DNA of 64,000 bases, from assembly GCA_965229245.1 (NCBI GenBank), contig CBDDIW010000005.1, positions 334,618 to 398,617 on the forward strand, read 5' to 3'. The stretch comes from Verrucomicrobiales bacterium (GTDB taxonomy: Bacteria; Verrucomicrobiota; Verrucomicrobiia; Verrucomicrobiales; V1-33). A program made the translations under genes and the position numbers. The notes below the pieces were generated by a model, which had not been told where the DNA came from, made no database searches, and was given only the letters and a program-made list of their open reading frames with translations. How positions within the stretch are numbered: position 1 is the first letter of the stretch; every line of letters starts with the position of its first letter. Positions 3,376-53,225 of this stretch are shown piece by piece.

Positions 3376-6300
3376 ATGGCTTCACGCGTTCATCAGGATC
3401 CCGCGCCCGGAAACGCGGTGCTTTGTCACCGGGGAGATGGGGTCACCGTCTCGCTCCAGACGCCGCCAGGAGGCACGGCCTGGCTGCGAACAAACGCCCC
3501 CGCCGCCGCTATCCGGAGGCAGGAGGTCATTGAAGCCGTGGAACTGGGATATCCCCGGCCCGGACAGGACTGGCAGGATCTTCCGATGGAACCCCTGGGT
3601 GATGGACGCTGGTCCTGTCGCCTGGCACTGGAGGACATTGGTTGTTATGAGGCGAAGGCTTACTGGTTGCCGGAGGGCTCGGACACGCCCTTGTGGCCGG
3701 ACGGCTCGGCGGGCAATCTCCGGCTGAAGGTCCAGCCCGCGTGGACGGCCTCCGGCTGTTCCATTTATTCCGCCTTCACCCGGATGTTTCAGCCGCCACT
3801 GCCCGCTGAACCCGCCGGCGTGGCCGAACTGGACGCCGTCGGCTGGACGGTGATCCCGCCCTCCGGAACCTTCCGGGCACTCGCGGCGGAGGTTCCGCGG
3901 ATCATCGATGAAATGGGGTTCCGCGTCGTGATGCTGCTACCCCCCTTCTCCGTGCCCACCACGCACGCGCGCATGGGCCGCTTTGGCAGTCCGTTTGCCG
4001 CTCTGGATTATCAGACCGTGGACCCTGCCTGCGCGGAGCACGACGGAAAAACCACGCCGCTCGAACAGTTCCAGGAACTCGGCGATGCCATTCATTCCCG
4101 GGGAGGCAGGCTGTTCATCGATGTCCCGATCAACCACACCGGCTGGGCCTCCCGCCTCATGCAGTTGCATCCGGAGTGGTATAAGCGCGACGGGGACGGC
4201 GAGTTTCATTCCCCGGGTGCCTGGGGCGTCGTCTGGGCCGACCTGGTGGAGCTGGACTTCACGCATCGTGATCTCTGGCGGGAAATGGCCGGGGTGTTTC
4301 TCTACTGGTGCCGCCAGGGAGTCGATGGCTTCCGCTGCGATGCCGGATACATGGTGCCCGTGCCCGTGTGGGAATACATCACGGCCAAAGTCCGGGAGGA
4401 ATATCCGGACACCCTCTTCCTCCTGGAGGGTTTGGGCGGCCCGGTGGCGACCACTCTGGAACTCCTGACCACGGGTGGGCTGGACTGGGCCTACAGCGAA
4501 TTGTTTCAGAACGAGGACCGGGGCGCCATCGACTGGTATCTGCCCCAGGCCATCGCGCACAGTGCCACGCACGGCCTGCACGTTCACTTTGCCGAGACCC
4601 ACGACAACAACCGCCTTGCCGCCAAAGGCGCGGTGTGGGCCCGCATGCGAATCGCCCTCTGTGCCCTGGCCTCACCCAATGGAGGATGGGGCCTCACCTG
4701 TGGCGCGGAGTGGCTGGCGGCGGAGAAGGTCCATGTCCACGGCGCATCCCCGCTGAATACCGGCGCGGAGCCGAATCTCATTGCCGGCATCGCGGCTCTG
4801 AACCGCCTGCTGGCCACGCATCCCGCCTTTCGTTCAGGCTCCACGCTGGATCTCATCACCCAGGGCGAAGGCCCCGGGATCGCCCTGCGCCGCCTGCCCG
4901 CGGCGGGAGGACAGTCCGTGCTGGTCGTGGCAAATCTGAATCCCCAGGCTCCCGCCATCGTGCGCTGGAAAGCCCCGGACTTCGCCGCCGCCCGGCCCGG
5001 TTTGTGTCTCTGGACCGGCCAGGCTCTAACTGTCAGGGAAAAGGACGGTTTTTGTGCGCTCGACCTTCCCGCGGGAGCCGTCTTCTGCCTGCCCTCTCCC
5101 GATCCCATCGCCGGGCTCCCATCCAAGACGCCCATCTCCCTGGAAAACGCAGTCATCGTTACCCTTCCCCGCGATGAACGCCGGACCATCGTCTGGCCGC
5201 CAGAGGAGGATCTAGTGGTAGTGGCCCTGGTTCCCTTTTCCGCGGAACTCCGGGATCGGAATACCGTTGCCTCCTCCGCCCACAGCTCCCCTTCACCGGA
5301 AGGCACCAATCATCTGGTCCGCGTTCCTTTTGTCAGGGCCGGCACCCTGCATGTCCGGCTGCACCAGGAGGGCGGCATCACCCGGCTGGACGTGCCTTTG
5401 CATCAGCCGGGAGAGGAAATGGCACTCCACTCCTCCCTGACAGGGGCGGAGGTTCGCGCGTTGCCGGACCTCCACGTTCTCCTGACAAACGGCACGGGAG
5501 CCATGACCCACACCCGCGCCGCGTGGGGAACGTTGCGCACGCAGTATGATTGCCTGCTGGCCGCCAATCCGGACCCGCTTGTCCCCGTGGACCGCCGCAT
5601 CCTGTTGAGCCGCTGCCGGGCGTGGATCGTCCGCCGGGGATTCTCCACGGAACTCACAGCCGCGTGGACCACGGCGGTCTGTCTCCTTTCCTCCGGACAT
5701 GCCGCATGGAGCTTCCATCTACCCTGCGGTGACGGGCACTGGATTGATCTCACGATGACCACCCATCTTGTCGCTGGAGAGGACCGGGTGTTGCTGCATT
5801 TCGAGCGTCAGGACGATGGCACGGAACCCGTCATGCTCATCCTGCGACCGGACATCGAGGATCGCGGATTCCATGAAAAGACCGTCCTCACCGGCGAGGC
5901 TCCGGGCATCATGAGCGCCGCCACCGCCGCAGGGCCGTCCGGCTTTCGTCAGCCCTGCCACAATGGCGGTCTATATGTTAGCATGGAAGGCGCTGACTTT
6001 GTTGTCCAGCCGGAGTTCAAAAACGTCAGCCATCCCCTGGACGCCAGACGTGGCCTGGGCGGGTCCTCGGACCTTTACAGCCCGGGCTATTTTGAAACGA
6101 AGCTTGCCGCCCGCGCCACCGCCGTCCTCAGTGCCTCGCTGATCCCTCACGGCCAGGAAGCCACCGCTCCCGTGCCCCCGTTGCCCGTGACCCACGCGCA
6201 CACGCTGAAAACCGCGCTGATGCAGTTCGTGGTCCGGCGGGATGGAGGGAAAACCATCATCGCCGGTTATCCCTGGTTTCTCGACTGGGGCCGGGACACG

Positions 6301-7383
6301 CTCATCGTGCTGCGCGGGCTTGTCGCCGCCGGGGAGCATGGCACGGTCCGGGACACGCTGCGCACCTTCGCGGGTTTTGAGGAAAACGGCACCCTGCCGA
6401 ACATGATTCGCGGGAACGACTGCTCGAACCGCAGCACCTCGGATGCCCCGCTCTGGTTCTGCGTGGCCACCGCGGACCTTCTCGCGGCGGAGCAGTCCGA
6501 CGCCTTCCTGGACGAACGCGCGGGCGGGCGGACTATCCGGGAGGTCATCCGGTCCATCGCCTCCCATTACATCAGCGGCACGCCCAATGGCATCCACATA
6601 GACCCCGCCAGCGGCCTCATCTGGAGTCCCTCCCACTACACCTGGATGGATACCAATTACCCCGCCGGCACCCCGCGGGAGGGCTACCCGCTCGATATCC
6701 AGGCGCTCTGGCACGGCACGCTCCGGCTGCTGGGCCGCATCGATCCCGGCGGGCAATGGCCAGCCCTCGCGGCAAAGGTCCGGGATTCCATCGCCACGCT
6801 TTATAACAGGAAAACGCCGGAGTTTCTCTCGGACTGCCTCCACGGTCCCTCCGGCACGCCCGCCGCCTCCGCGGAGGCGGATGACCACCTCCGGCCCAAT
6901 CAATTGCTGGCCATCACCCTGGGAGCCGTCACGGATTCCGCGCTGGCCGGACGCATCATCGCCTCCAGTATGGAACTGCTGGTGCCCGGAGCCATCCGCA
7001 CCCTCGCGGACCGGTCCGTCACCTTCGAGCTGCCAGTCTATCGCGATGGCCATTTGTTGAACAATCCCCGGGCACCCTTCTGGCCCACCTATCAAGGCGA
7101 CGAGGACACCCGGCGGAAGCCCGCCTATCACAATGGCACCGCCTGGCCCTGGCCCATGCCCGCGCTGCCGGAGGCTATTCTCCTAACAGGAGGCTCCCCC
7201 GCCCGCGCCCGGGCGATCCTGGCCTCCATGATCCCTCTTTCCTCCACCTTCTGCCTCGGTCATCTGCCGGAGATCGTGGATGCCGGCATCCCCCACACAC
7301 CCGGGGGCTGCGGAGCCCAGGCGTGGTCGGTTTCCGAGCTGCTGCGGGTGGAAAAACTCCTTCATTCATCCCCTTCGCCATGA
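3376..7383 (+). CDS. Glycogen-debranching-type fusion: N-terminal GH13 alpha-amylase catalytic domain + C-terminal amylo-alpha-1,6-glucosidase (GDE_C) domain
   Basis: GH13 conserved regions FIDVPINHTG, GFRCDAGYMVP, LLEGLGG, FAETHDNN. C-terminal GDE_C-like stretches IIAGYPWFLDWGRDTLIVLRGL and HNGTAWPWP. Confidence 0.85.
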   Translation: MASRVHQDPAPGNAVLCHRGDGVTVSLQTPPGGTAWLRTNAPAAAIRRQEVIEAVELGYPRPGQDWQDLPMEPLGDGRWSCRLALEDIGCYEAKAYWLPEGSDTPLWPDGSAGNLRLKVQPAWTASGCSIYSAFTRMFQPPLPAEPAGVAELDAVGWTVIPPSGTFRALAAEVPRIIDEMGFRVVMLLPPFSVPTTHARMGRFGSPFAALDYQTVDPACAEHDGKTTPLEQFQELGDAIHSRGGRLFIDVPINHTGWASRLMQLHPEWYKRDGDGEFHSPGAWGVVWADLVELDFTHRDLWREMAGVFLYWCRQGVDGFRCDAGYMVPVPVWEYITAKVREEYPDTLFLLEGLGGPVATTLELLTTGGLDWAYSELFQNEDRGAIDWYLPQAIAHSATHGLHVHFAETHDNNRLAAKGAVWARMRIALCALASPNGGWGLTCGAEWLAAEKVHVHGASPLNTGAEPNLIAGIAALNRLLATHPAFRSGSTLDLITQGEGPGIALRRLPAAGGQSVLVVANLNPQAPAIVRWKAPDFAAARPGLCLWTGQALTVREKDGFCALDLPAGAVFCLPSPDPIAGLPSKTPISLENAVIVTLPRDERRTIVWPPEEDLVVVALVPFSAELRDRNTVASSAHSSPSPEGTNHLVRVPFVRAGTLHVRLHQEGGITRLDVPLHQPGEEMALHSSLTGAEVRALPDLHVLLTNGTGAMTHTRAAWGTLRTQYDCLLAANPDPLVPVDRRILLSRCRAWIVRRGFSTELTAAWTTAVCLLSSGHAAWSFHLPCGDGHWIDLTMTTHLVAGEDRVLLHFERQDDGTEPVMLILRPDIEDRGFHEKTVLTGEAPGIMSAATAAGPSGFRQPCHNGGLYVSMEGADFVVQPEFKNVSHPLDARRGLGGSSDLYSPGYFETKLAARATAVLSASLIPHGQEATAPVPPLPVTHAHTLKTALMQFVVRRDGGKTIIAGYPWFLDWGRDTLIVLRGLVAAGEHGTVRDTLRTFAGFEENGTLPNMIRGNDCSNRSTSDAPLWFCVATADLLAAEQSDAFLDERAGGRTIREVIRSIASHYISGTPNGIHIDPASGLIWSPSHYTWMDTNYPAGTPREGYPLDIQALWHGTLRLLGRIDPGGQWPALAAKVRDSIATLYNRKTPEFLSDCLHGPSGTPAASAEADDHLRPNQLLAITLGAVTDSALAGRIIASSMELLVPGAIRTLADRSVTFELPVYRDGHLLNNPRAPFWPTYQGDEDTRRKPAYHNGTAWPWPMPALPEAILLTGGSPARARAILASMIPLSSTFCLGHLPEIVDAGIPHTPGGCGAQAWSVSELLRVEKLLHSSPSP

Positions 7384-7487
7384 GACCTTTTCAGTCCTGA
7401 CGCCCTCGCCAAATACGCATCCGCCGGGGAAAGTTATTTGCACTGAGTCTTGAAATCCCTTCATGGCTCAGCCACTTTACGGGCATC

Positions 7488-9473
7488 ATGAGCCATGAAG
7501 TGGAAGTTTACGGAAATGCAGTCGTCGCCACGGTGCATGGAGCGCTGGACGGGGAGGCGGCCCGCGGGTTATCTTCGGGGTTGAGGAGCCGGTCTTCCCC
7601 CGGAGCCACGGTCATCATCGATATGTCAGGAGTCTCCTCCGTGGATGTGGAGGGCATCACCCAGGTGGTGGCGCTCAAGCGGTGGGCGGAGCGGGAAAGT
7701 GGCAAGCTGATCCTCGCGGCCCCCTCCTACGAGGTCATGGACGCCTTGAGATCCAACGGACTGGACCGGATTTTTGAGACCTCCCCCAGCCGGGAGGACG
7801 CCCTGGATATCGCGGGAGCGGGTGGTGGCGCGGGTTCCTCCGCGGCGGCGTATTCCACCGGCGGCTACGGCGCCCCCCCCATGCCTCCCCCGGAGATCAT
7901 TCCCACGGATCCCGAGCCCTTTCATCCCACGACGCCTCCACCCATGTACGCGCCGGAGGAAGCCACACGGCGCGCTCAGCCGGGCGATCCGGAGGAAAAT
8001 GCCTGGGTGAAGCCGGACCGCGCCGCCACCCGGCAGGCCCCGCCGCCCGAGACCTACGCGCCCCCGCCTCTACAGCACCAGCCGCCACGGAAGAAAAAGA
8101 GCGCCCTGCCGCTCATCCTGTTCCTCCTCATCCTCCTGGGTGGCGGCGGCTTTGCGGCCTGGTATTTCCTGCTGAACAAGAAGCCGGAAGTCGTGGCCCA
8201 GACGGGAGGAGCCTGGCCACTGGTGGAGGGCACGGAGGCGGACTTTGAGATCAAATTCCGCAACGCCATTTCCATTTCCATCGTGGATGAACTGCCGGAC
8301 GATCTCACGCTGAATCCGGATGTCAAAACCTACGCGGACGGCACCAAGTCCCAGACCATCGTGGGCGATACCCGGAAGCTGGGCGAGCATGCCTTTTCCG
8401 TCCAGGCCACGCCCGAGGGCGGTGGCACGCCCTCTCCGGCGGTAAAGTTCAGCTTCAATGTCACGCCCGAGGAAGTGCGGAATACCGCGGGCACTTCCAT
8501 CGCCGAAGGATTTGAAAACCAGGCGTTCAAACCGAAATTCCGCGAACTGGCCCGGGGCTGCAAAACCGTCAGTGCCAAAGGATTGGAGGACACCGGCCTC
8601 ACCGTCACGCTGGATGGGCGCACCGCTTATCTGGAAGGCACTCCTGTAAAAGCAGGCACGATTTCCTTCACGCTCAACGCCGAGAACGCCGACGCGAAAG
8701 CCGCGTCCTTCCCCTACACCGTCGTCATCAAGCCGGATAAAGCGAAGGTGGTCAGCGTTCCCGTGAAGGACCCCACTCCTCCTCTGGAGAAAGATCCCAC
8801 GTCCCCGGAAAAGGAGCCCACCACCACGCCGGAAAAAGACCCGACCACTCCTGAAAAGGAGCCCGTGACCCCGGAAAAAGAACCCACGCAGCCGGTCAAG
8901 AAACCGGATCTTCCCGTGAAGGAGAAGCCTCCGGTCATCGTGGAGGAACCGGAGGAAGAGTCCATTGATCCCGCCATGCTCGCGATGCTGCGGGACCGCA
9001 TCGACAAGTCACGCTACTCGGATTCCGACAAGGCCCGGATGCGGAGCGCGGTGAATCAGGTTCAGTTTGCCCGGCGGATCGCCTCCGTGAAATTCGGTAA
9101 CGCCGAGAAATCTCTCTCCTCCGATGCGAAGGATGACCTCCGCAAAGAACTGCGCGCCGCCCCGGAACTGGCCAAGGGCCGGAAGGAAACGCTGGACTTT
9201 GTGGTGATCGGCTACGCCTCCCGCAAAGGCGCGCTGCCCCTGAACATCGCCATTAGCAAGGCACGGGCCGCCTCCGTGGAGGCCGTGCTCAAGGGTTCGG
9301 AATTCGGAGTCACCCCGAAGTTCACGGGCGACTATGGTGCCACGGATGTGCTCGGTTCCTCCGAGGAGGCGAACCGTGTGGTGGAGGTCTATGCCGTGCT
9401 GGTGAAGAAGGAAACCGCCGACACCCTGCGCCGCCTCATTGAGGACATGAAGCGCCTCTCCGGTTCCCACTGA
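7488..9473 (+). CDS. STAS domain - proline-rich linker - TM helix - putative Ig domains - PT-rich linker - OmpA-like peptidoglycan-binding domain protein (first gene of the T6SS operon)
   Basis: N-terminus resembles SpoIIAA/STAS (VATVHGALDGEAA...VIIDMSGVSSVDVEGITQVVAL...LILAAPSYEVMDAL). Single TM helix LPLILFLLILLGGGGFAAWYFLL. C-terminus is OmpA-like (LDFVVIGYASRKGALPLNIAISKARAASVEAVL...RVVEVYAV). A 23-bp gap separates it from the next gene. Confidence 0.7.
   Translation: MSHEVEVYGNAVVATVHGALDGEAARGLSSGLRSRSSPGATVIIDMSGVSSVDVEGITQVVALKRWAERESGKLILAAPSYEVMDALRSNGLDRIFETSPSREDALDIAGAGGGAGSSAAAYSTGGYGAPPMPPPEIIPTDPEPFHPTTPPPMYAPEEATRRAQPGDPEENAWVKPDRAATRQAPPPETYAPPPLQHQPPRKKKSALPLILFLLILLGGGGFAAWYFLLNKKPEVVAQTGGAWPLVEGTEADFEIKFRNAISISIVDELPDDLTLNPDVKTYADGTKSQTIVGDTRKLGEHAFSVQATPEGGGTPSPAVKFSFNVTPEEVRNTAGTSIAEGFENQAFKPKFRELARGCKTVSAKGLEDTGLTVTLDGRTAYLEGTPVKAGTISFTLNAENADAKAASFPYTVVIKPDKAKVVSVPVKDPTPPLEKDPTSPEKEPTTTPEKDPTTPEKEPVTPEKEPTQPVKKPDLPVKEKPPVIVEEPEEESIDPAMLAMLRDRIDKSRYSDSDKARMRSAVNQVQFARRIASVKFGNAEKSLSSDAKDDLRKELRAAPELAKGRKETLDFVVIGYASRKGALPLNIAISKARAASVEAVLKGSEFGVTPKFTGDYGATDVLGSSEEANRVVEVYAVLVKKETADTLRRLIEDMKRLSGSH
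8763..8940 (+). repeat. In-frame PT/PEK-rich tandem repeat (linker) inside the STAS-OmpA gene
   Basis: Translation: VKDPTPPLEKDPTSPEKEPTTTPEKDPTTPEKEPVTPEKEPTQPVKKPDLPVKEKPP. It is a degenerate 7-8 aa unit P-E-K-(D/E)-P-T-T. Confidence 0.8.
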
Positions 9474-9496
9474 CTGGCCATCCCTCCCCTGTCCTG

Positions 9497-10489
9497 ATGG
9501 CCATCAGTGAAAAGATCAATCCGGTCGAGTGGGCCGAACGCACGGCCCAGCGGCTGCGCTGGGCCTATGCCAGTACCGCGGATCTGGGACCCACCCCCCA
9601 GCAGGCGCACCTCGCGGCGGAGATGGAACACCTGGCCGCCGAGCTCCCCGCCAATGGCCGCCGCGAGTGCCTGAAGGAACTGCTTTCCCGTTTCCCCGGC
9701 CTGGAGCGCGCGCCGGCGGACATCACCGCCTCCGCGGGCATGCCTTTTGTAATGCCGCCCTCCTCCCCGGAGGATCTGGCCACGCAGCTGGCGGACTCCT
9801 GGGCGACGATGGATGCAGAGCAAAAGTCCCGCGTGCAGGCCAGGCTCACCGCCGCCGGCATCGTCAGCAAACCTGCGGAGCGGCCCTCCCGCCTCGCGGG
9901 TGGCCTCGTGGCCATGGACCCGGCCAGGGAACAAATGGCCGTCCTGAAAATCGAAGTTCTCAAGGCCCGGCTGGAAATCGACGACCTGGACTCCGTGCGT
10001 CCCCTGGATCTCTACTGGATCTTCAGCATCATGGACGTGCTGCTCCAGCACACCGAGCAGATGGACCGCTTGGTTTCCACCATCTGGCCGTTGTGGAAAA
10101 AGATCGCCCCGGCCTCCCGCATCCAATCGCCGCCTGGCCGCAGCATTCTCGTGCAGGCCATGCGGGATTTCCTCACCGGCCAGGACCGGGAGACCCTGGA
10201 CAAACAGCTTACCTCCCACGAGTCCGCCGTGCGGCTCATGGTGGCCATCGTAAGCGCCATCGGAGCCGGGGGCCGGAATTTCGCCTCCCAGCTCAGCCAT
10301 TCCCAGGCCCCGGAGCATATCATGCGTGAGGCCCGGGCCGCGCGCATCAAGGGCAATGCCCAGGAGGCCGCGTGGTCCTATTACGAACAGTTGAGCAATG
10401 ACTTCACCCCGCAGGTGCTGGAAAACATGCTCCGCGAGGCCATCGCCCACGCCGCCGAGGAACTCTTCCGGTCCAAACCCGCCTGGTAA
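9497..10489 (+). CDS. Hypothetical protein, T6SS-operon associated (no recognisable domain)
   Basis: 330-aa ORF with no signal peptide or TM helix. It is wedged between the STAS-OmpA gene (23-bp gap) and tssK (21-bp gap). Composition looks coding, unlike the Arg/Gly-rich antisense ORFs. Confidence 0.6.
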   Translation: MAISEKINPVEWAERTAQRLRWAYASTADLGPTPQQAHLAAEMEHLAAELPANGRRECLKELLSRFPGLERAPADITASAGMPFVMPPSSPEDLATQLADSWATMDAEQKSRVQARLTAAGIVSKPAERPSRLAGGLVAMDPAREQMAVLKIEVLKARLEIDDLDSVRPLDLYWIFSIMDVLLQHTEQMDRLVSTIWPLWKKIAPASRIQSPPGRSILVQAMRDFLTGQDRETLDKQLTSHESAVRLMVAIVSAIGAGGRNFASQLSHSQAPEHIMREARAARIKGNAQEAAWSYYEQLSNDFTPQVLENMLREAIAHAAEELFRSKPAW

Positions 10490-10510
10490 CCGCTTTCCCA
10501 TCCCCCCGCA

Positions 10511-11893
10511 ATGTCTTCTCAAATCCACTGGCACGAAGGACTTTTTCTCCAACCCCAGCATCTCCAGACGCTGCAGCGGGGAGCCTATAAGACCATCTTT
10601 GGCGAGCGCCGCTTTTCCATGACCTATCCCTACGGGGTCATCGAAGCCCGGCTCGCCGTGGACGATCTGGAGGACCACCGCATCCGGTTTGACAAGCTGC
10701 ACATCGCCCTGCCCAGCGGGGCCATCTTCCGTTATCCGGAGGACGCGGAGTTGCCCAGTCTGGATATCAAAGCCGCCTTCCGCGAGCGTGGCGAAGACTT
10801 CATGATCTACCTCGCCGTCCCGGTGTGGCTGGACGAGCGTCCTAACGTAATCGAATACGGCGCGGGCGTGCCGGGCCAGCGGCAGAAGATCATCTATCAG
10901 GTGGGGGAAACGGAGGTCTGTGATGAAAACACGGGCCGTAACAAACAGCCCATGCAGGTGCGCCGCTTGAACGGCATGCTGATGTTCGAAGACGAGGACT
11001 TTTCGGACACGGAATACGTGCCGCTCCTCCGCGTCATGCGCCAGGTTTCGGACGGAGCCGCCGGGCTGCCGCGGATGAATCCGCGCTACGTCCCGCCCAC
11101 GCTGCTCATGCGTGGCTCGCCGCCGCTCATGCAACTGGTGAGGGACCTCACCGCCCAGGTGGCCGCTACCCGGGATCAACTGGCGAACCACCTGGCTCAC
11201 ACCCCGCTGGACCTTCGCAACCTCCAGGGCATGCAGTTCGAGCAGATGGCGCGACTCCGCTGCCTGCACCGGGCCACCGGTCAGTTGTTCAGCCTCATCG
11301 ATACCGCCGAGGGCCGCGTGCCGCCGTTCGAGGTCTATCTGGAAATGCGCTCGCTCCTGAATGAACTGGAGTCCCTCTATCCTGCCCGGGCGGAATGGAA
11401 CTGCGCGGCCTATGATCATGACAACCCCTGGATGCCGTTCCAGGAGCTGGACACGAAGATCCGTTCCTATCTGGGCGGCGTGGTGAAGCCCCGCTACCGG
11501 AAGGTGGAGTTCCGCTACGCGGATGGCTACTTCACCGGGGATCTCACGCCGGACTTCTTCCCGGACGCCACCGGCTTCTACCTCTCCGTGGAAACCGCCA
11601 TGGACCCCGCGCAACTGGTGCGCCTCATCGAGGACAGCGACCACTTCAAGCTCATGCCCGTGAGCTTCGGCCCGCGGGCCATCCGGGGGCTCTCCCTCAA
11701 GGAGGAGCGGAATCCCCCGTTCGAACTGCCGGTGAAAGCGCGTGTGTACTACTACCGGGTAAACATCGATGGCAGCCGCCGCATCTGGGAGCAATTCATC
11801 CGCGAGCCCCAGGCCATCATTCACTTCGAGTCCCCGGACCGGGCGAAGTTCCAGTTCATCCTTTACGCCACCGTGCCCACACCCCTGGCCTGA
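10511..11893 (+). CDS. tssK: Type VI secretion system baseplate subunit TssK (ImpJ/VasE family)
   Basis: Canonical TssK N-terminus MSSQIHWHEGLFLQPQHLQTLQR...YPYGV...LPSGAIFRYPEDAELPSLDI...IYLAVP. Length 460 aa. Located immediately upstream of tssL/tssM. Confidence 0.9.
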   Translation: MSSQIHWHEGLFLQPQHLQTLQRGAYKTIFGERRFSMTYPYGVIEARLAVDDLEDHRIRFDKLHIALPSGAIFRYPEDAELPSLDIKAAFRERGEDFMIYLAVPVWLDERPNVIEYGAGVPGQRQKIIYQVGETEVCDENTGRNKQPMQVRRLNGMLMFEDEDFSDTEYVPLLRVMRQVSDGAAGLPRMNPRYVPPTLLMRGSPPLMQLVRDLTAQVAATRDQLANHLAHTPLDLRNLQGMQFEQMARLRCLHRATGQLFSLIDTAEGRVPPFEVYLEMRSLLNELESLYPARAEWNCAAYDHDNPWMPFQELDTKIRSYLGGVVKPRYRKVEFRYADGYFTGDLTPDFFPDATGFYLSVETAMDPAQLVRLIEDSDHFKLMPVSFGPRAIRGLSLKEERNPPFELPVKARVYYYRVNIDGSRRIWEQFIREPQAIIHFESPDRAKFQFILYATVPTPLA

Positions 11894-11899
11894 TCCTCC

Positions 11900-12607
11900 A
11901 TGAATGCGCTCCAGCTCTACGAGCCCCTCCTGCTGTATGTCTGCAAGGTGAACCGTCTCGTGCGGAACGGGGTGCCCCTTTCCTTCGGTCAGGTCCGCGG
12001 CGAGGTCATGGGCCTGCTGGGGGATGCCGATGCCAAAGCGGAGGAGGATCCCACGCTGCGGGACCACCACCGGGCACTGCGCGCGCCCATCACGTATTTC
12101 ATCGATGACCTCTTCGCCCAGGGCCGCTACAGTTTTGCCTCCCGCTGGCATGAAAGCCGGCTGGGTTTTGTGAAGGACGGCCTGGCGGGTGACGAGGCGT
12201 TTTTCGATTACCTGGACGAAGCCATCCGGAAGCCGCCGTCAGAGGCGCTTTCCCAGCAGCTCCTCGTGTATTACACCTGCCTCGGCCTCGGCTTCGAGGG
12301 GTTTTATTTCAATCAGCCGGACCGCCTCCGGCAGTATATGAAAGCCCTGGAGCCCGCCGTCCGCCACTACCTCGTGGATGACAGCGTGCCCCGCCTGGTG
12401 CCCCAGGCTTATGAGTACACAGACCAGCGGGATTTCGTCCATCCTCCCCAGTTGAAGAAGGCGCTCATTCTCGCGGGCGTGCTCTGTCTGCTGCTGGCCG
12501 GGATTCCCTTATTCCTTTACCTGGGCAAGCAGATCCTGGCCAATGAAGACCCCGCGCTGAGACAGATTTTCGAATCCCACCAGGGAACGCGCCCCGCCAC
12601 TCCCTGA
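11900..12607 (+). CDS. tssL: Type VI secretion membrane subunit TssL (DotU family), without a C-terminal peptidoglycan-binding extension
   Basis: DotU-like core (LYEPLLLYVCKVNRL..., DEAFFDYLDEAI, LLVYYTCLGLGFEGFY) and a single C-terminal TM helix ALILAGVLCLLLAGIPLFLYL. A 6-bp gap follows tssK. Confidence 0.85.
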   Translation: MNALQLYEPLLLYVCKVNRLVRNGVPLSFGQVRGEVMGLLGDADAKAEEDPTLRDHHRALRAPITYFIDDLFAQGRYSFASRWHESRLGFVKDGLAGDEAFFDYLDEAIRKPPSEALSQQLLVYYTCLGLGFEGFYFNQPDRLRQYMKALEPAVRHYLVDDSVPRLVPQAYEYTDQRDFVHPPQLKKALILAGVLCLLLAGIPLFLYLGKQILANEDPALRQIFESHQGTRPATP

Positions 12608-12675
12608 CTCCTGGAGACTCCGCTCCTCTCTTTAGATTTTTTCCATCCTCACGGCACCTCTGAATTCCCTCGTAT

Positions 12676-15600
12676 ATGGCTAACATACCGAGACCGCATA
12701 TCAACAAGCCGCAGATGGAGACATTCCATCGGGGCCACGCCACCTCCGCGCTGTGGACCGCCCTCCCGGGGCCGGTGACCATGATTTACTCCATGATCGC
12801 GGCGGGCTCCATCACCGGCATGGCGTGGTATCTCGGGGACACCTATGCCGATGGAAAGGGCTCCACCTGGACGTTCATCGCCATCGGCGTCATGACGGTG
12901 ATCGCGCTCATCCTTCTGCTGATCCGGGTGAGCCGTGCCAAAAAGCAGTCACGGATGGCGGGTTCCTTCGAGGAGGCGGTAAAAGGCAGCGCGGCGGGCT
13001 GGGATGGTGGTGGCGCCGCGGGCACGGACCCGGCGGAAATGGCCCGTCTGGACAATCTGCGGAAGCAGTTTCAGAAGGGCATCGACTCCTTCCGGGAGTA
13101 TGGGAAAGACTTCTATTCCCTGCCCTGGTATGTGATGGTGGGCGAACCCGGAAGCGGTAAAACCGAGGCCATCCGCCACAGCGATCTCCGGTTTCCCGAA
13201 ACCCTCCAGGACATGCTCCAGGGCACTGGGGGCACTTACAGCATGGACTGGTGGTTTACGAACCAGGCCGTGCTCCTGGACACCGCGGGGGCCATGCTCA
13301 TGAACCCCGAGGCCACGAAGCGCTTCGAGGAATTCCTGAAACTGCTGCGCACCTACCGCCCGGACTGCCCGGTGAACGGGATCATCCTGGCCATCCCGGT
13401 GGACAGCCTTCTCGCGGACAATGCCGCGAAGCTGGAGGAAAAGGCCAAGCGCATTTCCCAGCAGTTCGGCATCATTCAAAAGGCGCTGGATGTCCGCTTT
13501 CCCATTTATCTCATGGTCACAAAAAGTGACCGCCTACCGGGCTTCCGGGAATTCTCCGATGCCGCCGGGCAACAGACCTTCGACCGCGAAATGTTGGGCT
13601 GGTCGAATCCCGCGGACCTCGACACCCCGTTCGACCCCGCGAACATCGGGTCCGCGTTGCAAGCCATCGCCACGCGGCTTCAGGCCCGGAGCCTGGCGCT
13701 GCTGGCCGATCCCATCCCGCGCCAGGCGGGGAACCGGCGGGTGGACGAAGTGGACAGCCTCTATGGTTTCCCCTCCACCATCCTCTCCCTGGAGCCCCGG
13801 CTGCGGCGTTACCTGGAGATCATCTTTCAGACGGGCACCTGGGCCACGCTGCCCCCCTTCTTCCGCGGGGTGTATTTCACCTCCGCCATGAACGAAGGGG
13901 CCGCGCTGGATGAACAACTGGCCTCCGCGCTGGGCATGTCCATCGAGACCCTGCCAGGAGGAGGTCTCTTCAACCGGGACAAGTCCGTCTATCTGCGCGA
14001 TGTTTTCACCGAAAAGGTCTTTCGGGAACGGGGCCTCGTCACACGTCTGAAGGACATCGGGAAGGCCCTGCGGCGGAAGCTGGTGTGGTTCTACACCACC
14101 GCCGCCATTCTCCTGATGCTGCTGCTCGGCGTGGCCTGGCTGGAGAAACGGAAGATCGACCAGGAACTGCTCCTGGAACAGGAGAACTGGCGGGTGGCCA
14201 ATGCCACCTGGGGAAATGGGGCCTTCCTTCCCATCGTGATCCGCACGGAAAGTCCGGACGTGCCGGGGGTGTCCAAAGCCCGTCCACGCTGGACCGCCGC
14301 CTGGCAGGGCGAAAACGCCCGGGTCTGGAAAAAGCTGGGAGACGGGGACAAGGACAACCTGACCAAAGTCGAATTCCTCGCCTATCTGGAACAACGCACC
14401 GCGAAGGGCCTGCCTGGCGCGGCGATTTTCCACGTCCTGCCTTCCATCAAGGACTTCGAACGCCGGCGCCGCGTGGCCTGTCTGGCGGTGTATGAGGGCA
14501 GCGTGCTCAAGCCGGTGCTCGAAGGCGTGCGGGAAAAGATCGTATGGGACGCCCGCGACGCGGAGGCCCGGAATCAGCACCGCGCTGACGCTCCTCCCTC
14601 CGATCCAGAACAGGACCGCCGCCTCGCCGGTGCCTATGACGCCCTGGTGCGGCTGGAGGCCACTCTGCAAGCCCATGCCGCCGGAGAGAAGATCGAGAGA
14701 TGGAAGGCGGACGACTACCGGAAAATCCTGGAGCCCATGCTGCTCTATCTCTGCCCGCCGTCAGCGGATGGAAAGAATGCGAATCTGAACGCCTCCCTCA
14801 CTTCCAACGCCGCCGCGGATCTGGCGGACATCGCGGAACGCCTTTACGCGGGCTCTCTGTTCGGAAACAAAAAGGGTACGGAAAGCCTCGAAACCCGAAC
14901 CTGGCTGAAGACGCCGGACGACGGCGCGAACAATTCGCTGGGGCGTCTAGCGCTGGAAAAAGGACTGGAAGCCATCCTCGGCACGGGCGGGGTGGCGCAA
15001 ACAGCGGTAGAGTCCGAAGGTGACCGGAAACAGCTTCAGGCGGAAAAGGAAAACGCCCTGAAACTCTTTGAGGAGGCGGAGGACCAACTGGGCGGCCTCA
15101 CGGCGGCCAATGCTACCCGCGCGGTGATCACGGACTCTCTGGTGACTCTCCGCGGGCACCTCGAAAGCCTGGATACCGCCCGCGGAAAGCTGGGCGATGC
15201 CTCGAAGCTGACGGGCATGAGCCGTTCCGATCTCTCCATCCTCTGCAAGTCGCTCAAAACAAGTCTGGATCTCCTGACAGAAGCGCAGATGCCCGCCCAC
15301 CTGCGGCCCGTGTACGCGAAGGCCGGGGATGTGCTGAAATCCAGCCCCGCCCCTGTCTCTCCGCTCACCCCGGAACCCGGCGCGGGCGACGAAAAGGAAA
15401 AAGCCGTGACGGGCAAAACGGCTTCTCCCGAGGACGCCGCGCGCATCCGGTTTGAAACCTATCAAAAGCGGCTCACCCAGGCGGACAAGATCCAGGCATC
15501 CACCCTGACGATCGATCTCGTGGGCCGGCTCGAAGCCGAGGCCCTGGGCATCAATCAGAAAGTGGAAGCTGCCCGTGCCGCGGCAAAGCTGGAATACGAC

Positions 15601-16416
15601 GGCCCGCGCAAAGAGGAATGTGGTAAAGCCTGCGCCGCCATCGATCTCTGCATGGGGGAAATCGCCACGGGGAAACTGCTCAAGGCCTACACGGAGGTGC
15701 TGCGCGCCTTCCTGGACCCGCGGCTGAAGTTCCCCCTCGTGCGGACCGCTAACAAAGACCGCCGGTTTACCCTGCCGGAGTTCAAACCCGCGATCGAATC
15801 CCTGGGGAAAGTGGAAAAGGACCGGCTGTTCTTCGACTCCGCTCCCGCGGGCTTCCGGGCCAGCCAGGGCGCGGATGTGCTGGCCAAATACTTCGAAGCC
15901 TTCAACGATGTCATGACCATCGCCAAGGTGCTCAAACCGGACAACGCCTCCCAGCCGGCCGGTGACGGGCTTTATGCGAAGCGCAGTTTTGTGAAACCGG
16001 CGGAGAAGAAGAACGTGCCGGTGGTGCCGATGATCGACCCCATCACCCGCCAGCCCATTCCCCCGCAGACGACACCGGAGGCAGTGGATGTGGGCGTGAC
16101 CGTGGCCTCCGTGAGCCAGGGCGGGTTCGTGCTCATCGGGGAAACCGGGGCGGCGGTTTCCAAGAAGATCAATCCTAACAAGCCCATCCAGATCCAGGTG
16201 CAGCGCCAGATGGACGTCCGCGCCCTCCAGCCGGAGACGCAGACCCGCACCATTCCGGAACGGGCGGACAATGATCCATGGGGTCTCATCAACTGGTGGA
16301 TCGATAACAAGACCGACCACCAGATACAGGTGCTGGGAATTGTGTTCGGCATCGAGGCCTCCCCTTCCCTGCCCTCCGTCTGGCCGGTGCGCCGCTCCTT
16401 CGGCCTGAATGACTAG
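12676..16416 (+). CDS. tssM: Type VI secretion membrane subunit TssM (IcmF family)
   Basis: N-terminal TM helices, Walker A GEPGSGKT, the IcmF signature WWFTNQAVLLDTAG, and a third TM helix LVWFYTTAAILLMLLLGVAWL. Roughly 1200 aa. Start uncertain; alternatives are ATG 12715 or 12781 (MIYSMIAAG). Confidence 0.9.
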   Translation: MANIPRPHINKPQMETFHRGHATSALWTALPGPVTMIYSMIAAGSITGMAWYLGDTYADGKGSTWTFIAIGVMTVIALILLLIRVSRAKKQSRMAGSFEEAVKGSAAGWDGGGAAGTDPAEMARLDNLRKQFQKGIDSFREYGKDFYSLPWYVMVGEPGSGKTEAIRHSDLRFPETLQDMLQGTGGTYSMDWWFTNQAVLLDTAGAMLMNPEATKRFEEFLKLLRTYRPDCPVNGIILAIPVDSLLADNAAKLEEKAKRISQQFGIIQKALDVRFPIYLMVTKSDRLPGFREFSDAAGQQTFDREMLGWSNPADLDTPFDPANIGSALQAIATRLQARSLALLADPIPRQAGNRRVDEVDSLYGFPSTILSLEPRLRRYLEIIFQTGTWATLPPFFRGVYFTSAMNEGAALDEQLASALGMSIETLPGGGLFNRDKSVYLRDVFTEKVFRERGLVTRLKDIGKALRRKLVWFYTTAAILLMLLLGVAWLEKRKIDQELLLEQENWRVANATWGNGAFLPIVIRTESPDVPGVSKARPRWTAAWQGENARVWKKLGDGDKDNLTKVEFLAYLEQRTAKGLPGAAIFHVLPSIKDFERRRRVACLAVYEGSVLKPVLEGVREKIVWDARDAEARNQHRADAPPSDPEQDRRLAGAYDALVRLEATLQAHAAGEKIERWKADDYRKILEPMLLYLCPPSADGKNANLNASLTSNAAADLADIAERLYAGSLFGNKKGTESLETRTWLKTPDDGANNSLGRLALEKGLEAILGTGGVAQTAVESEGDRKQLQAEKENALKLFEEAEDQLGGLTAANATRAVITDSLVTLRGHLESLDTARGKLGDASKLTGMSRSDLSILCKSLKTSLDLLTEAQMPAHLRPVYAKAGDVLKSSPAPVSPLTPEPGAGDEKEKAVTGKTASPEDAARIRFETYQKRLTQADKIQASTLTIDLVGRLEAEALGINQKVEAARAAAKLEYDGPRKEECGKACAAIDLCMGEIATGKLLKAYTEVLRAFLDPRLKFPLVRTANKDRRFTLPEFKPAIESLGKVEKDRLFFDSAPAGFRASQGADVLAKYFEAFNDVMTIAKVLKPDNASQPAGDGLYAKRSFVKPAEKKNVPVVPMIDPITRQPIPPQTTPEAVDVGVTVASVSQGGFVLIGETGAAVSKKINPNKPIQIQVQRQMDVRALQPETQTRTIPERADNDPWGLINWWIDNKTDHQIQVLGIVFGIEASPSLPSVWPVRRSFGLND

Positions 16417-16428
16417 TCCCTGACTTCC

Positions 16429-17430
16429 ATGAATACCGTCGCCGCCGCCTTTCTCGCTGACTCCCTGCCGCCTGGCGCGGCGGCCCGGGTGGCGATCTTC
16501 GGAAAGCATCCCGCCGCGGCGGATCACCTGGAGGACGCGGGGCTTTCCACCCTGTCCCTGGTGCAGTTCAAACAGGGGCTGTATGTGGAGGGGCTGGGGG
16601 AAATCCTGGCGCGCAAACGCTGGGAAAAGGATCTGGAGGACACTCCGGACCACGTACCGTGGGGTCACGGCATCGTCTGTGCCGGTCCCGCGGGATGGCT
16701 GGTGGCTTACCTCACCGCGTCCTCGGATGCCAAGGGACGGCGTCAGTATCCGCTGGTGGCCGCGGGGCATATGACGGGATTTCGCGCCGCGGCTTCTGCG
16801 GGAGAGGCGGGCGACATTCTCCGGCAGATCCTGCGCCAGGCCCAGGGCGCGGGCTCGATGGATGCCCTCCGGACCGCCCAGGTTTCCGGGCAGCGCCAGT
16901 TGGAGGAAAAGATGAGCTTCGCCTCCTCCGCGGCGGCGGGCACCTCCGTGCGGCTCCGGATGCTGGAAGGCAGCGGCTGCGGCCCGGAATCCGATGCCCT
17001 CGCCCGCGTGCTGCATTCACTTTCCCCGCAAGGAGCCGGCACGGGCCGCGCGCGCGTCCGGCAGAGCACGGCCATTACCGCCTTCCACGCGCTCCTCTGG
17101 ACGGCGCTGGTGCGTTCCGTGCTTCATCTGGAGCGCCATCCTGTCTGCATGACCTGGCAGCAGGGGGACTCGCTGGGGGACATCACCCTGGGGGATCCCG
17201 GAGCGCGGACGTTGCAGAACCTGTTTTCCCCGGAGACCGCCGTCCCGCTCACGGCCTGCGTGCCTTATTCCATCGAGGAGCAGCAGCAGGAAGCCTGGAG
17301 CGAAAGCGTGCAGGCCTGGCTGGATGCGCCGGAGTTTCTGGCGGCTCCGGAAGCCGCCTCCGGCGGTTCCGTCATCAAGAGCATGTTCCGCTCCGTGGGT
17401 GGCTTTTTCAGACCGCGGCATAAATCCTAA
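16429..17430 (+). CDS. tagF: TagF-like type VI secretion-associated protein (DUF2094 family)
   Basis: N-terminal VAIFGKHPAAADHLE resembles the TagF GK-P--GDF motif. The position directly after tssM (12-bp gap) is typical for tagF. The rest of the protein is not diagnostic by eye. Confidence 0.55.
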   Translation: MNTVAAAFLADSLPPGAAARVAIFGKHPAAADHLEDAGLSTLSLVQFKQGLYVEGLGEILARKRWEKDLEDTPDHVPWGHGIVCAGPAGWLVAYLTASSDAKGRRQYPLVAAGHMTGFRAAASAGEAGDILRQILRQAQGAGSMDALRTAQVSGQRQLEEKMSFASSAAAGTSVRLRMLEGSGCGPESDALARVLHSLSPQGAGTGRARVRQSTAITAFHALLWTALVRSVLHLERHPVCMTWQQGDSLGDITLGDPGARTLQNLFSPETAVPLTACVPYSIEEQQQEAWSESVQAWLDAPEFLAAPEAASGGSVIKSMFRSVGGFFRPRHKS

Positions 17431-17440
17431 CCAACACGCT

Positions 17441-18463
17441 ATGGACCTCCAGTCACTGAAATCCCCTGTCAGCCCGTCCGCGCCCTGCGGGGTGGACCTC
17501 GAAAACAACTACGACCCGCGCTGGGCGCAGTTGAACACGCTCGCCGCCGGCGAGAAACGGGAGGGCATCACCTATCCGCCCAAGTGGCAGGATGTGCGGG
17601 ATCTCGCCCTGGAGCTGGCCGCGGAGACGCGGCATCTGCGCCTGGGGGTCATCCTCACGGAATGCGCCACGTTCCTCCAGGGGGTCGCGGGTCTGCGGGA
17701 CGGCCTCAGCCTGCTCCGCTACTGGTGCGAAAACTTCTGGGACGATGTCTATCCCGCCGGGGAACTGGAGGATAAACGGGACTTCCGCCCGCCGGTGATC
17801 GAGGCGCTGAATTACCCCTCATTCCTCGTGAAACTGCTGGCCGTGCCGGTCTCGCAGTCCGCGGGTGGGCGGTTCAGCATCGGGGAACTGGAGGCTTCGG
17901 AAAATCCCTCCGGCGATGCGGATGACGCCAATACCGCGAAACTGGTGCAGGGCGGATTCAAGAACACGCCCCTGGACATCGTCACGGCGGCACACACGGC
18001 GCTCACGGAGTCCCTGGATAACGCCCGGGCCATTGAGGATGTGTTCGATGAAAAATTCGGCAGCGGCTACGGGGTGAATCTAGCGGACCTTCGGGACCAG
18101 CTCAGCCGCATGGCCCGGAAGATCGCTCCTTATTGTGCCACCGAGGCCGAAGCCGCGGGCGGCGAGACCGGGTGGGGCGATTCCTCCGCAGATGGTGGTG
18201 GTTACGCCACGGCTGCAGGTGGCGGTGGGGGCATCGCGGTGGGAGCCATCAATTCCCGGGACGCCGCGGTGAAAGCGCTGGATAAGATCATCTCCTGGTT
18301 CGAGCTCAATGAACCCTCGAATCCCGTTCCCTTCCTGCTCCGCCGCGCCCAGCGCTGCGCCGGCATGAACTTCTTCGAGCTCATCAATGAACTCGCCAAC
18401 GACCGCGCGCAGGCGGAACTGATCCTGAAACCGGATCCACCCGCGGAGCCGGTCTATCAATAA
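17441..18463 (+). CDS. tssA: Type VI secretion protein TssA (ImpA N-terminal domain family)
   Basis: ImpA_N-like SPVSPSAPCGVDLENNYDP...WQDVRDLALELAAETRHLRLGVILTECATFLQGVAGLRDGLSLLRYWCENFWDDVYP. TssA-type C-terminus NPVPFLLRRAQRCAGMNFFELINEL. Start set at ATG 17441 (MDLQSL), 10 bp after tagF. Confidence 0.8.
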   Translation: MDLQSLKSPVSPSAPCGVDLENNYDPRWAQLNTLAAGEKREGITYPPKWQDVRDLALELAAETRHLRLGVILTECATFLQGVAGLRDGLSLLRYWCENFWDDVYPAGELEDKRDFRPPVIEALNYPSFLVKLLAVPVSQSAGGRFSIGELEASENPSGDADDANTAKLVQGGFKNTPLDIVTAAHTALTESLDNARAIEDVFDEKFGSGYGVNLADLRDQLSRMARKIAPYCATEAEAAGGETGWGDSSADGGGYATAAGGGGGIAVGAINSRDAAVKALDKIISWFELNEPSNPVPFLLRRAQRCAGMNFFELINELANDRAQAELILKPDPPAEPVYQ

Positions 18464-52047: not shown

Positions 52048-52572
52048 TTAAAGCTCACGCAGGGGAGGCTCCGGAAAAGCCTCCGGCTTCGCCGGGACCG
52101 GACCGATCACCTCCTCCGTGTTCTGGGACTGGCCGGAGGTCCGGCGCTTGCCAGGCGGCATGCCGTTCTTCTCCGTATGCTGTACGGGTAGCGTGGTCCG
52201 CGTTCCCGCTCCACCACCCCGGTAGTCCACGGGGATGGAGCTGGGGCCGGCCTCCTGCCCGGTGGCCACCACCACCATGAGCCCCGGGTTTTTGGGCGCG
52301 GGACGGGGCACGAGCCAGAATCCCGCGAGCACGGCGGCATACACTGCGGCGGCACTCCAGATCACGACCGGACGCCGCAGGCCGTCCATCCACGCCTGGG
52401 TGCGCTCCCACAGGATACCCAGGGCACTCCGGCGCATGAGTTCGGTGCGCTGGCGGCGCTGGAATTTCTCCAGAAACTCCTCCGTGAAGCCTTCCTGGGG
52501 CTGCTCGTGGCGTTTCAGGCGCAGCAGCCGTTGCAACTGTTCTTCCTTGTCCATGGGGGGTCCTCCTTTCAT
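52048..52572 (-). CDS. Putative anti-sigma factor (single-pass membrane protein)
   Basis: The start overlaps the sigma gene stop by 4 nt (52569-52572). One central TM helix VVIWSAAAVYAAVLAGFWLV. No conserved motif recognised. Confidence 0.55.
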   Translation of the reverse strand: MKGGPPMDKEEQLQRLLRLKRHEQPQEGFTEEFLEKFQRRQRTELMRRSALGILWERTQAWMDGLRRPVVIWSAAAVYAAVLAGFWLVPRPAPKNPGLMVVVATGQEAGPSSIPVDYRGGGAGTRTTLPVQHTEKNGMPPGKRRTSGQSQNTEEVIGPVPAKPEAFPEPPLREL

Positions 52573-53225
52573 TTGAGGTAATCCGAAAGCAATGCCTGGA
52601 GCTGGCGGTGGGCGTAGTGCAGACGGGAGCGCACCGTGCCGGCGCTCAGCCCCATGATCCGTCCGATCTCGTTGTGCGGCATGCCCTGGATGTCGAACAT
52701 CACCACCACGGCGCGATGGGATTCCGGCAGCTTCAGCAGGGCTTCGTTCAAATGTTGCTGGAGTTCGTTCAGCCCCGCCTCCCGCACGGGATCGCTGGTG
52801 GCCGTGAGTTCCAGATACTCCTCATCGTGCTGGATGGCCCCGTCCATGTCCTCCAGGCTCACATGGCGGCGGCGGCCCCGGCGCTTCAGAAAATTGATGG
52901 TGGTATTCACCGCGATGGTGTGCACCCAGGTGTGAAACCCGCTCTCCCCGCGAAACCGTTTCAGACTCCGGTAGGCCCGGGCGAAGACATCCTGGAGCAG
53001 ATCATACGTGTCCTCCCGGTTGGAAGTCATGTTGTAGATGAGCTGATAGAGCTTCGGGGTGAACTTCCGCACCAGCGTGTCAAAGGCGGTGGTGTCCCCG
53101 TCGCGCGACCGTTCCACCAGCAGGCGGTCCTGTTCTTTCTCGGTCAAGACTCCGTCGGTCATGCGGGTGGCATCGGTCTCCGCGACCAGACCGAATCCTG
53201 ACAGGGTTGTCGTGAAGGTGGGCAC
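52569..53225 (-). CDS. ECF-type RNA polymerase sigma-70 family factor
   Basis: Region 2: DGDTTAFDTLVRKFTPKLYQLIYNMT...DLLQDVFARAY...FHTWVHTIAVN. Region 4: LPESHRAVVVMFDIQGMPHNEIGRIMGLSAGTVRSRLHYA. Start may instead be the internal ATG at 53162. Confidence 0.9.
   Translation of the reverse strand: MPTFTTTLSGFGLVAETDATRMTDGVLTEKEQDRLLVERSRDGDTTAFDTLVRKFTPKLYQLIYNMTSNREDTYDLLQDVFARAYRSLKRFRGESGFHTWVHTIAVNTTINFLKRRGRRRHVSLEDMDGAIQHDEEYLELTATSDPVREAGLNELQQHLNEALLKLPESHRAVVVMFDIQGMPHNEIGRIMGLSAGTVRSRLHYAHRQLQALLSDYLK

Follow-up and report, generated by a model that had tools for sequence, protein, structure and literature searches.

On balance, we favor the view that a gene in a Verrucomicrobiales genome encodes a Verrucomicrobiota-specific accessory subunit of a non-canonical type VI secretion system (T6SS) membrane complex, in which a tether to the cell wall would be combined with a STAS domain acting as a docking or regulatory module. 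The gene lies in a stretch of 64,000 nucleotides (assembly GCA_965229245.1, contig CBDDIW010000005.1, positions 334,618 to 398,617 of the forward strand), the whole of which is hereafter called the window. Its product, which we refer to as the STAS-OmpA protein, is built from N- to C-terminus of a STAS domain, a disordered Pro-rich linker, one transmembrane (TM) helix, two immunoglobulin (Ig)-like domains, a Pro/Thr-rich (PT) hinge and a helical hairpin with an OmpA-like domain. It stands at the head of a block of T6SS genes that is conserved among relatives, and its STAS domain has no phosphorylatable serine at the canonical position.

Results

The STAS-OmpA gene heads a conserved T6SS block

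The genomic context was compared between the window and 20 further distinct loci. Of these, 18 carry a full STAS-OmpA gene with readable downstream DNA (the window included), and 17 of the 18 are T6SS-linked, the exception being L016. In the window and 16 other loci (L001, L002, L004, L005, L008, L010, L011, L013, L014 and L017-L023) the STAS-OmpA gene is followed by an orphan gene, here called gene2, and then by tssK, tssL, tssM, a tagF-like gene and tssA, to the extent that the contig covers them. At L020 the tagF-like gene is not followed by tssA, and at L017, L019 and L021-L023 the block continues with tssB and tssC. Two additional loci are cut short, L006 ending after gene2 and L007 within the STAS-OmpA gene itself. 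Adjacency to the block persists down to about 25% protein identity. The upstream neighbors, on the other hand, are wholly different among loci (a glycogen-debranching gene, an ABC transporter, RHS, VgrG/DUF4123/PAAR, a kinase with Sel1, or FHA-ABC), and the conserved block therefore starts with the STAS-OmpA gene. The co-occurrence with tssK, tssL and tssM that had been pointed out as worth checking is thus found at all but one of the 18 readable loci, and orthologs are not regularly unlinked from T6SS genes.

All genes of the block in the window share one strand, with gaps of 6-68 bp save for an overlap between tssA and the tagF-like gene; the gaps on either side of gene2, toward the STAS-OmpA gene and toward tssK, are 21-23 bp. 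A promoter and terminator scan of positions 7200-9600 gave nothing above shuffled expectation, so that the placement of the STAS-OmpA gene as the first gene of the operon, as the initial annotation had it, draws on synteny and gene spacing, both of which agree with it.

The family has few members, and those of known taxonomy all belong to Verrucomicrobiota. A word-indexed search with the full protein and with a 29-sequence profile returned nine close homologs only (48-59% identity, from Verrucomicrobiales metagenome-assembled genomes, MAGs), as low-complexity Pro-rich words filled the candidate list. Five loci, all in Verrucomicrobiota, came from 185,579 species scanned with one genome each, and an exhaustive profile search of 1.84 billion representatives gave 48 matches at E<1e-30. 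Among the matches listed, about 28 are proteins of the same architecture from end to end (600-790 residues; representatives of 50%-identity clusters), and the remaining ones are giant Ig-repeat proteins matching in the Ig region only (profile region 250-420). One named family member belongs to Chthoniobacteraceae. All examples come from one phylum and mostly from MAGs or metagenome assemblies; L016 lies on a complete 6.4-Mb chromosome.

A bitopic protein with a STAS head and an OmpA-like tail

The 661-residue protein was modeled with AlphaFold2 from an alignment of nine homologs, and each folded part was compared with the PDB by Foldseek. The model (per-residue confidence given as pLDDT) comprises the STAS domain (residues 1-108, pLDDT ~83), the linker (112-206, <50), a single membrane span (207-229), two Ig beta-sandwiches (243-326 and 352-414, strands at 74-84), a disordered hinge (418-490, <50) and the hairpin with an alpha/beta domain (495-658, 75-89). 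The domain order that had been read from the sequence is borne out by the Pfam STAS match, by the OmpA and He_PIG matches of relatives, by the predicted folds and by Foldseek. From the window sequence alone only the STAS assignment is secure, because OmpA and He_PIG (PF05345; 16.2 bits against a cutoff of 24) score under their Pfam cutoffs in this protein. At the family level all three assignments hold: among 17 distant members, Pfam finds OmpA in all 17 (PF00691 at E<=0.01, best E=3e-9), STAS in 14-15 and He_PIG in eight (best E=9.8e-8).

The hydropathy maximum (2.28) falls at residue 206 and all other segments remain at or below 1.6; an N-terminal signal peptide was not detected in the 661-residue protein by sequence and hydropathy analysis. 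Because this single hydrophobic helix is preceded by RKKK and no signal peptide is present, the protein fits an N-in/C-out topology, with a cytoplasmic STAS domain and a periplasmic OmpA-like domain, in line with the earlier proposal. Mean pairwise identity in the close clade is 82% for the STAS domain, 78% for the TM helix, 69% for the OmpA-like domain, 60-65% for the Ig domains and 40-49% for the linkers, and the top conservation of the STAS domain and TM helix is as expected for interaction surfaces.

Within the cytoplasmic linker, W173 and V174 are invariant in alignment A1, and a motif W-x-x-[F/Y/W/K/P], mostly aromatic at its last position, recurs in about 20 of 28 members at a distance of 22-42 residues from the TM helix, on its N-terminal side. 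The T6SS-unlinked homolog P0030 of locus L016 has no such Trp motif. By Foldseek, the middle of the protein matches tandem-Ig modules; some family members carry four Ig domains instead of two. The hinge contains a 21-bp tandem repeat that codes for PEKEPTT-type units, and hinge length is very variable across homologs. The coordinates of all features are collected in Table 1.

The C-terminal domain superposes on solved beta-alpha-beta-alpha-beta-beta peptidoglycan-binding domains, the Foldseek matches being OprF (5u1h, TM-score 0.61-0.63), Acinetobacter baumannii OmpA (3td3, 0.68) and Salmonella OmpA (4rha, 0.63), at E~1e-4. In TagL, cell-wall binding needs N494, L497, S498, R501 and A502, and diaminopimelate (DAP) is contacted by D486, N494, L497 and R501 (PMC8253398). 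The five binding residues correspond to N586, I589, S590, R593 and A594 of the window protein; four of them (N, S, R, A) are kept and the change of Leu to Ile is conservative. Across the 29-sequence family, S590 and R593 never vary, and the conservation of N586 and A594 is 90% or higher.

Table 1. Features of the STAS-OmpA gene and of the T6SS block in the window (aa, amino acids; ORF, open reading frame; AF2, AlphaFold2).
Feature	Position	Strand	Basis
Whole gene, STAS-linker-TM-Ig-Ig-PT hinge-OmpA-like	7488..9473	+	ORF, 661 aa, ATG start
Cytoplasmic STAS domain, aa 1-108	7488..7811	+	PF01740, pLDDT ~83, Foldseek
D53-V54-E55-G56, counterpart of SpoIIAA DSSG, Val at phospho-Ser position	7644..7655	+	Profile-to-PDB alignment
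Disordered Pro/Ala-rich cytoplasmic linker, aa 109-203	7812..8096	+	pLDDT <50, composition
WVKP motif in linker, aa 173-176	8004..8015	+	Alignment conservation
Single TM helix, aa 205-229, RKKK N-terminal to it	8100..8174	+	Hydropathy
Two periplasmic Ig-like beta-sandwiches, He_PIG type, aa 243-326 and 352-414	8214..8729	+	AF2, Foldseek
Disordered Pro/Thr/Glu/Lys (PT) hinge, aa 418-490	8739..8957	+	pLDDT <50
Imperfect tandem repeat in hinge, 21 bp x 4.8 copies, 67% matches	8786..8888	+	TRF
Helical hairpin, aa 495-522, and OmpA-like alpha/beta domain, aa 525-658	8970..9461	+	AF2 pLDDT 75-89, Foldseek
Putative peptidoglycan-site motif S578...N586-x-x-I589-S590-x-x-R593-A594 (canonical D...NxxLSxxRA)	9219..9269	+	Alignment columns
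gene2, 330-aa all-alpha orphan, directly downstream of STAS-OmpA gene	9497..10489	+	ORF
tssK	10511..11893	+	PF05936 E=2.7e-58; TIGR03353 224 bits
tssL, short form, 235 aa, no periplasmic extension	11900..12607	+	PF09850 DotU E=8e-17, aa 5-203
tssM, non-canonical periplasmic part	12676..16416	+	IcmF-related_N only, aa 214-469
tagF-like gene, weak	16429..17430	+	TIGR03373 21.7 bits against cutoff 41.2
tssA	17324..18463	+	PF06812 E=7.6e-23; TIGR03363 175 bits, above cutoff

The STAS domain is probably not a classical phospho-switch

The N-terminal domain scores well above the gathering cutoff for PF01740 (50.2 against 22.6 bits, E=2.5e-13, residues 4-105) and also exceeds that for PF13466 (39.2 against 29.2 bits, E=8e-10). 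Its modeled fold, a four-stranded beta-sheet flanked by helices, superposes on solved STAS structures: by Foldseek it matches 4hyl (TM-score 0.85, root-mean-square deviation 1.7 Å) and SpoIIAA/RsbV (0.81-0.87), with an overall range of 0.75-0.87 and 1.7-2.5 Å for SpoIIAA/RsbV/TM1442-type antagonists. SLC26 and SULTR chains are likewise among the STAS profile and Foldseek matches. The placement of DVEG where SpoIIAA-type proteins carry DSSG, originally made by eye, is reproduced by profile-to-PDB alignment with 4hyl, TM1442 and SpoIIAA, in which DVEG falls on DSSG/DSAG and Val on the phosphorylated Ser. In the 28 STAS-bearing members this column holds V, G, M, P, Q, I, A, H or R, and Ser in a single one. 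Because of this near-absence of Ser, a classical phospho-switch is unlikely for this domain, which agrees with the earlier suspicion that it may not be phosphorylatable. The companion idea of a phosphomimetic residue did not hold: the Glu in question lies one residue past the phospho-site, and that next position is acidic in only about one quarter of members, so the phosphomimetic reading was rejected on both position and conservation.

A T6SS block without the usual periplasmic anchors

The initial annotation had noted a TssL without peptidoglycan-binding extension and the absence of TssJ, and both observations stand. TssL matches DotU only and stops about 25 residues past its TM helix, and a TssJ-type gene was found neither in the block (7488-18463) nor among the genes tabulated for the related loci. 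In TssM, TIGR03348 aligns over model positions 9-459 of 1168 only, and the C-terminal 738 residues (14200-16416) remain without a Pfam match even at E<=5; this unrecognizable periplasmic part fits the lack of TssJ. A short TssL, a non-canonical TssM periplasmic part and no TssJ together point to a machine without the usual periplasmic anchors. The genes tssB, tssC, hcp, vgrG, clpV and tssEFG were not found within the window.

As to TagF, a tagF-like gene is indeed conserved in the block, yet its match to TIGR03373 is sub-threshold in the window and weak in the orthologs that match (7 of 10), so that the name holds less firmly than the presence of the gene. The listed tssA frame overlaps the 3' end of the tagF-like gene by 107 nucleotides (17324-17430); since the TssA family match begins at residue 40, the true tssA start is probably downstream of 17324.

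The gene2 product has no match in Pfam, NCBIfam, PDB sequences or PADLOC, and its single-sequence structure model (pLDDT 50) is too poor for use. A hidden Markov model of gene2 detects it at every T6SS-linked locus and not at L015 or L016. By its distribution, gene2 is another lineage-specific T6SS-associated gene, and its product is a candidate partner of the STAS domain.

Two further genes border the block in the window. Upstream of the STAS-OmpA gene lies a glycogen-debranching/alpha-amylase fusion gene (3376-7383, + strand), which is also present in the closest relative, L005 (5017-9138), so that synteny with the L005 MAG extends beyond the T6SS block. Directly after tssA, positions 18669-22769 (+ strand) encode a protein of 1366 residues with seven DUF5122 beta-propeller repeats and ASH/HYDIN-type Ig domains; a relative of it occurs at the edge of L004, adjoining an RHS protein, and it may be a T6SS cargo or surface protein.

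Phospho-signaling genes adjoin the STAS-OmpA gene in part of the lineage

Ser/Thr-signaling genes directly flank the STAS-OmpA gene in seven relatives (L010, L016, L017, L018, L019, L021 and L022). Four of these (L016, L018, L019 and L021) share an orthologous FHA-ABC fusion, two (L016 and L019) a gene for a small FHA protein, and three (L010, L017 and L022) an orthologous Hanks kinase of 750-790 residues. At L016, FHA and PP2C genes lie directly upstream and the opposite strand carries FHA-ABC, FHA-trypsin and kinase-FGE genes. The FHA-ABC fusion has the composition FHA-ABC_tran-ABC2_membrane, measures 770-874 residues where complete and is transcribed divergently from the STAS-OmpA gene; at L001 and L002, an ABC ATPase and a permease are encoded by separate genes instead. 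ABC transporter genes adjoin the STAS-OmpA gene in six relatives and none does so in the window. No kinase, PP2C or FHA gene adjoins the STAS-OmpA gene in the window or in its closest relatives L001, L002, L004, L005 and L008.

Two homologs deviate from the common pattern. P0030 (L016:8307-11941, OZ260079.1, from the complete 6.4-Mb genome) is the only full-length homolog away from tss genes. P0010 (L015:1784-4210, on a 5-kb metagenome contig) carries a Hanks Ser/Thr kinase in place of the STAS domain, joined to the same TM-Ig-Ig-OmpA-like module, with about 39% full-length identity to the window protein; it sits between selU and a TolB-like gene and has no T6SS neighbors. P0010 is a singleton, and a chimeric assembly is possible.

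The signaling neighbors and the kinase-headed P0010 argue against the earlier idea of an assembly checkpoint separate from the PpkA/PppA/Fha logic. Judged from gene neighborhoods, the STAS-OmpA protein may be wired into an Fha/PpkA/PppA-like circuit in part of the lineage.

Discussion

In this study, we propose that the STAS-OmpA protein is a bitopic inner-membrane protein in which two Ig spacers and the flexible PT hinge would extend the OmpA-like domain toward the cell wall. Presumably associated with TssL and TssM, it would tether their complex to peptidoglycan, a task that falls to an extended TssL or to TagL, TagN, TagP or TagW in other T6SSs. At the other end, the STAS domain would serve as a docking module for a cytoplasmic T6SS partner and not as a phospho-switch. 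Candidate partners are the gene2 product, the TagF-like protein, the cytoplasmic domains of TssL and TssM, and TssK; docking may be aided by the disordered linker, in which the Trp motif is conserved.

Several observations weigh against this proposal. In the window protein itself, PF00691 stays below its cutoff (19.0 against 27.2 bits, residues 539-623). The counterpart of the DAP-contacting D486 of TagL is S578, this position being Ser in 27 of 29 members (family signature GYAS in place of GxTD) and Asp only in P0017, and peptidoglycan binding may therefore be weak, altered or absent. At L016, neither a tss gene nor gene2 occurs within 10 kb of P0030. Finally, a pure anchor has no need of a STAS domain. 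The peptidoglycan-anchor role put forward initially thus keeps its footing in the fold and in the retained NxxLSxxRA residues and loses it at the DAP contact, so that peptidoglycan binding by the OmpA-like domain is plausible but not assured.

The most serious alternative, which we regard as a real if minority possibility, is that trans-envelope signaling rather than anchoring is the primary role. The Ig and OmpA-like domains would sense the state of the wall or envelope, and the STAS domain would relay it to a circuit of the threonine-phosphorylation type, made up of Ser/Thr kinase, PP2C, FHA and TagF-like proteins, by which T6SS assembly is gated, making the protein a functional cousin of PpkA or TagR of the Pseudomonas H1-T6SS. 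The adjoining kinase, PP2C and FHA genes of the seven relatives speak for such a role, as does L016, which retains regulatory neighbors while structural T6SS genes are absent, and the conservation of the tagF-like gene within the block points the same way. The exchange of STAS for a kinase in P0010 would further imply that the cytoplasmic part behaves as a swappable signaling head, yet P0010 was found only once, on a contig of 5 kb, where it lies beside a TolB-like gene and not beside a T6SS. Moreover, the canonical phospho-site is missing in 27 of 28 members, the window and its five closest relatives are devoid of adjoining kinase, PP2C and FHA genes, and an anti-sigma-type kinase with a HATPase_c domain occurs at no locus. 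Signaling and anchoring are not mutually exclusive.

A bolder reading, which we offer only tentatively, would place the STAS-OmpA protein at the core of a T6SS assembly checkpoint not described before. The non-phosphorylatable STAS domain would be coupled mechanically or allosterically, across the envelope, to the wall-binding domain and would recruit or release a cytoplasmic gatekeeper (the TagF-like protein, the gene2 product or an FHA protein). Engagement of the wall would then be a condition for building the machine at a given place, and over evolution STAS and Ser/Thr kinase heads could stand in for one another.

A general role in the envelope, such as that of a Tol-Pal-like protein or of a cell-wall organizer, is improbable for the STAS-OmpA protein; its T6SS adjacency would then stem from shared locus ancestry, and it would have no part in secretion. 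The TolB-like neighbor of the kinase variant P0010 and the unlinked L016 would suit such a protein, and with all loci in one phylum the synteny counts are not fully independent. The adjacency nevertheless outlasts both divergence to about 25% identity and the complete turnover of upstream neighbors, and only 21-23 bp separate gene2 from the STAS-OmpA gene and from tssK. Least credible, and rejected in its classical form for want of a phosphorylatable Ser and of an anti-sigma kinase, is a membrane-tethered SpoIIAA/RsbV-type antagonist that controls T6SS transcription with an anti-sigma kinase and a sigma factor as intermediates: the best fold matches of the STAS domain are anti-sigma antagonists and an ECF (extracytoplasmic function)-type sigma factor gene occurs in the window (52569-53225), but Val occupies the phospho-Ser position, TIGR00377 (34.8 against 53.45 bits) matches only weakly and TIGR02886 (19.8 against 114.75 bits) falls still further below its cutoff, no HATPase_c kinase of the RsbW/SpoIIAB type appears in the gene tables of the roughly 20 loci, and the sigma gene lies 43 kb off and is not conserved in related loci.

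Outside Proteobacteria, little is known of how the membrane complex of a T6SS is anchored and activated. Exceptions to the canonical TssJ-L-M picture have already come from Acinetobacter and Bacteroidota, and Verrucomicrobiota are an environmentally abundant phylum. With an accessory wall tether as the favored role of the STAS-OmpA protein, the solution of this phylum can be defined at the sequence level by a short TssL, an unrecognizable TssM periplasmic part, no TssJ seen and two lineage-specific genes at the operon head. The union of a STAS domain with a cell-wall-type domain across the membrane, together with the FHA/PP2C/kinase link and the kinase swap, provides a testable entry to post-translational T6SS control. 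A literature search for STAS or anti-sigma antagonists in combination with T6SS returned nothing relevant, and a 2026 review cataloging the accessory genes of T6SSs names TagL, TagN, TagP and TagI as binding peptidoglycan and uses neither the word STAS nor anti-sigma, in accordance with the earlier remark that no STAS domain was known to have been described in a T6SS membrane anchor.

Among known systems, SpoIIAA, RsbV and TM1442 share the fold of the window STAS domain, and its profile aligns with them end to end. They are soluble single-domain proteins regulated via phosphorylation of the DSSG serine, whereas the window STAS domain is membrane-tethered, has Val at this position and lies near no partner kinase. 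A functional parallel may be MlaB of the MlaFEDB complex and the C-terminal STAS domain of SLC26/SulP transporters, which are non-phosphorylated and fixed subunits of membrane machines; the likeness is that STAS serves an envelope machine from the cytoplasmic side, for interaction or regulation, instead of acting as a phospho-switch, and specific similarity of the window STAS domain to MlaB was not detectable. PpkA of the Pseudomonas aeruginosa H1-T6SS is similarly a bitopic inner-membrane protein encoded in a T6SS cluster, with a cytoplasmic signaling domain and a periplasmic domain, the latter being von Willebrand A-like and so of another type than that of the window protein. P0010 has the corresponding Hanks kinase head; the window protein, unlike PpkA, has no kinase domain and no adjoining kinase, PP2C or FHA genes. 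The divergently transcribed FHA-ABC fusion of the relatives recalls TagS/TagT of the Pseudomonas H1-T6SS.

A comparison can also be made with TagL (SciZ of the enteroaggregative E. coli Sci-1 system), TagN, TagP, TagW, TagI and extended TssL, which are likewise inner-membrane proteins encoded in T6SS clusters with a C-terminal periplasmic OmpA/Pal/MotB-type domain. Similarity to TagL-type proteins was not detected outside the OmpA-like fold, and NCBIfam gave no TagN, TagP or TagW match at E<=0.01, no profiles dedicated to these families having been applied. As in TagL-type systems, the window protein occurs where TssL itself is devoid of such a domain, and it keeps the NxxLSxxRA residues. TagL has multiple N-terminal TM segments that bind TssL, whereas the window protein has one hydrophobic segment and an N-terminal STAS domain, and it further differs in its two Ig domains, its long hinge and the Ser that replaces the DAP-contacting Asp. 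At most, the STAS-OmpA protein would be a functional analog of TagL. Accessory proteins that bind peptidoglycan are familiar from T6SS clusters; it is by its STAS head, its Ig spacers and the Asp-to-Ser change in its binding site that the STAS-OmpA protein stands out among them as a novel variant.

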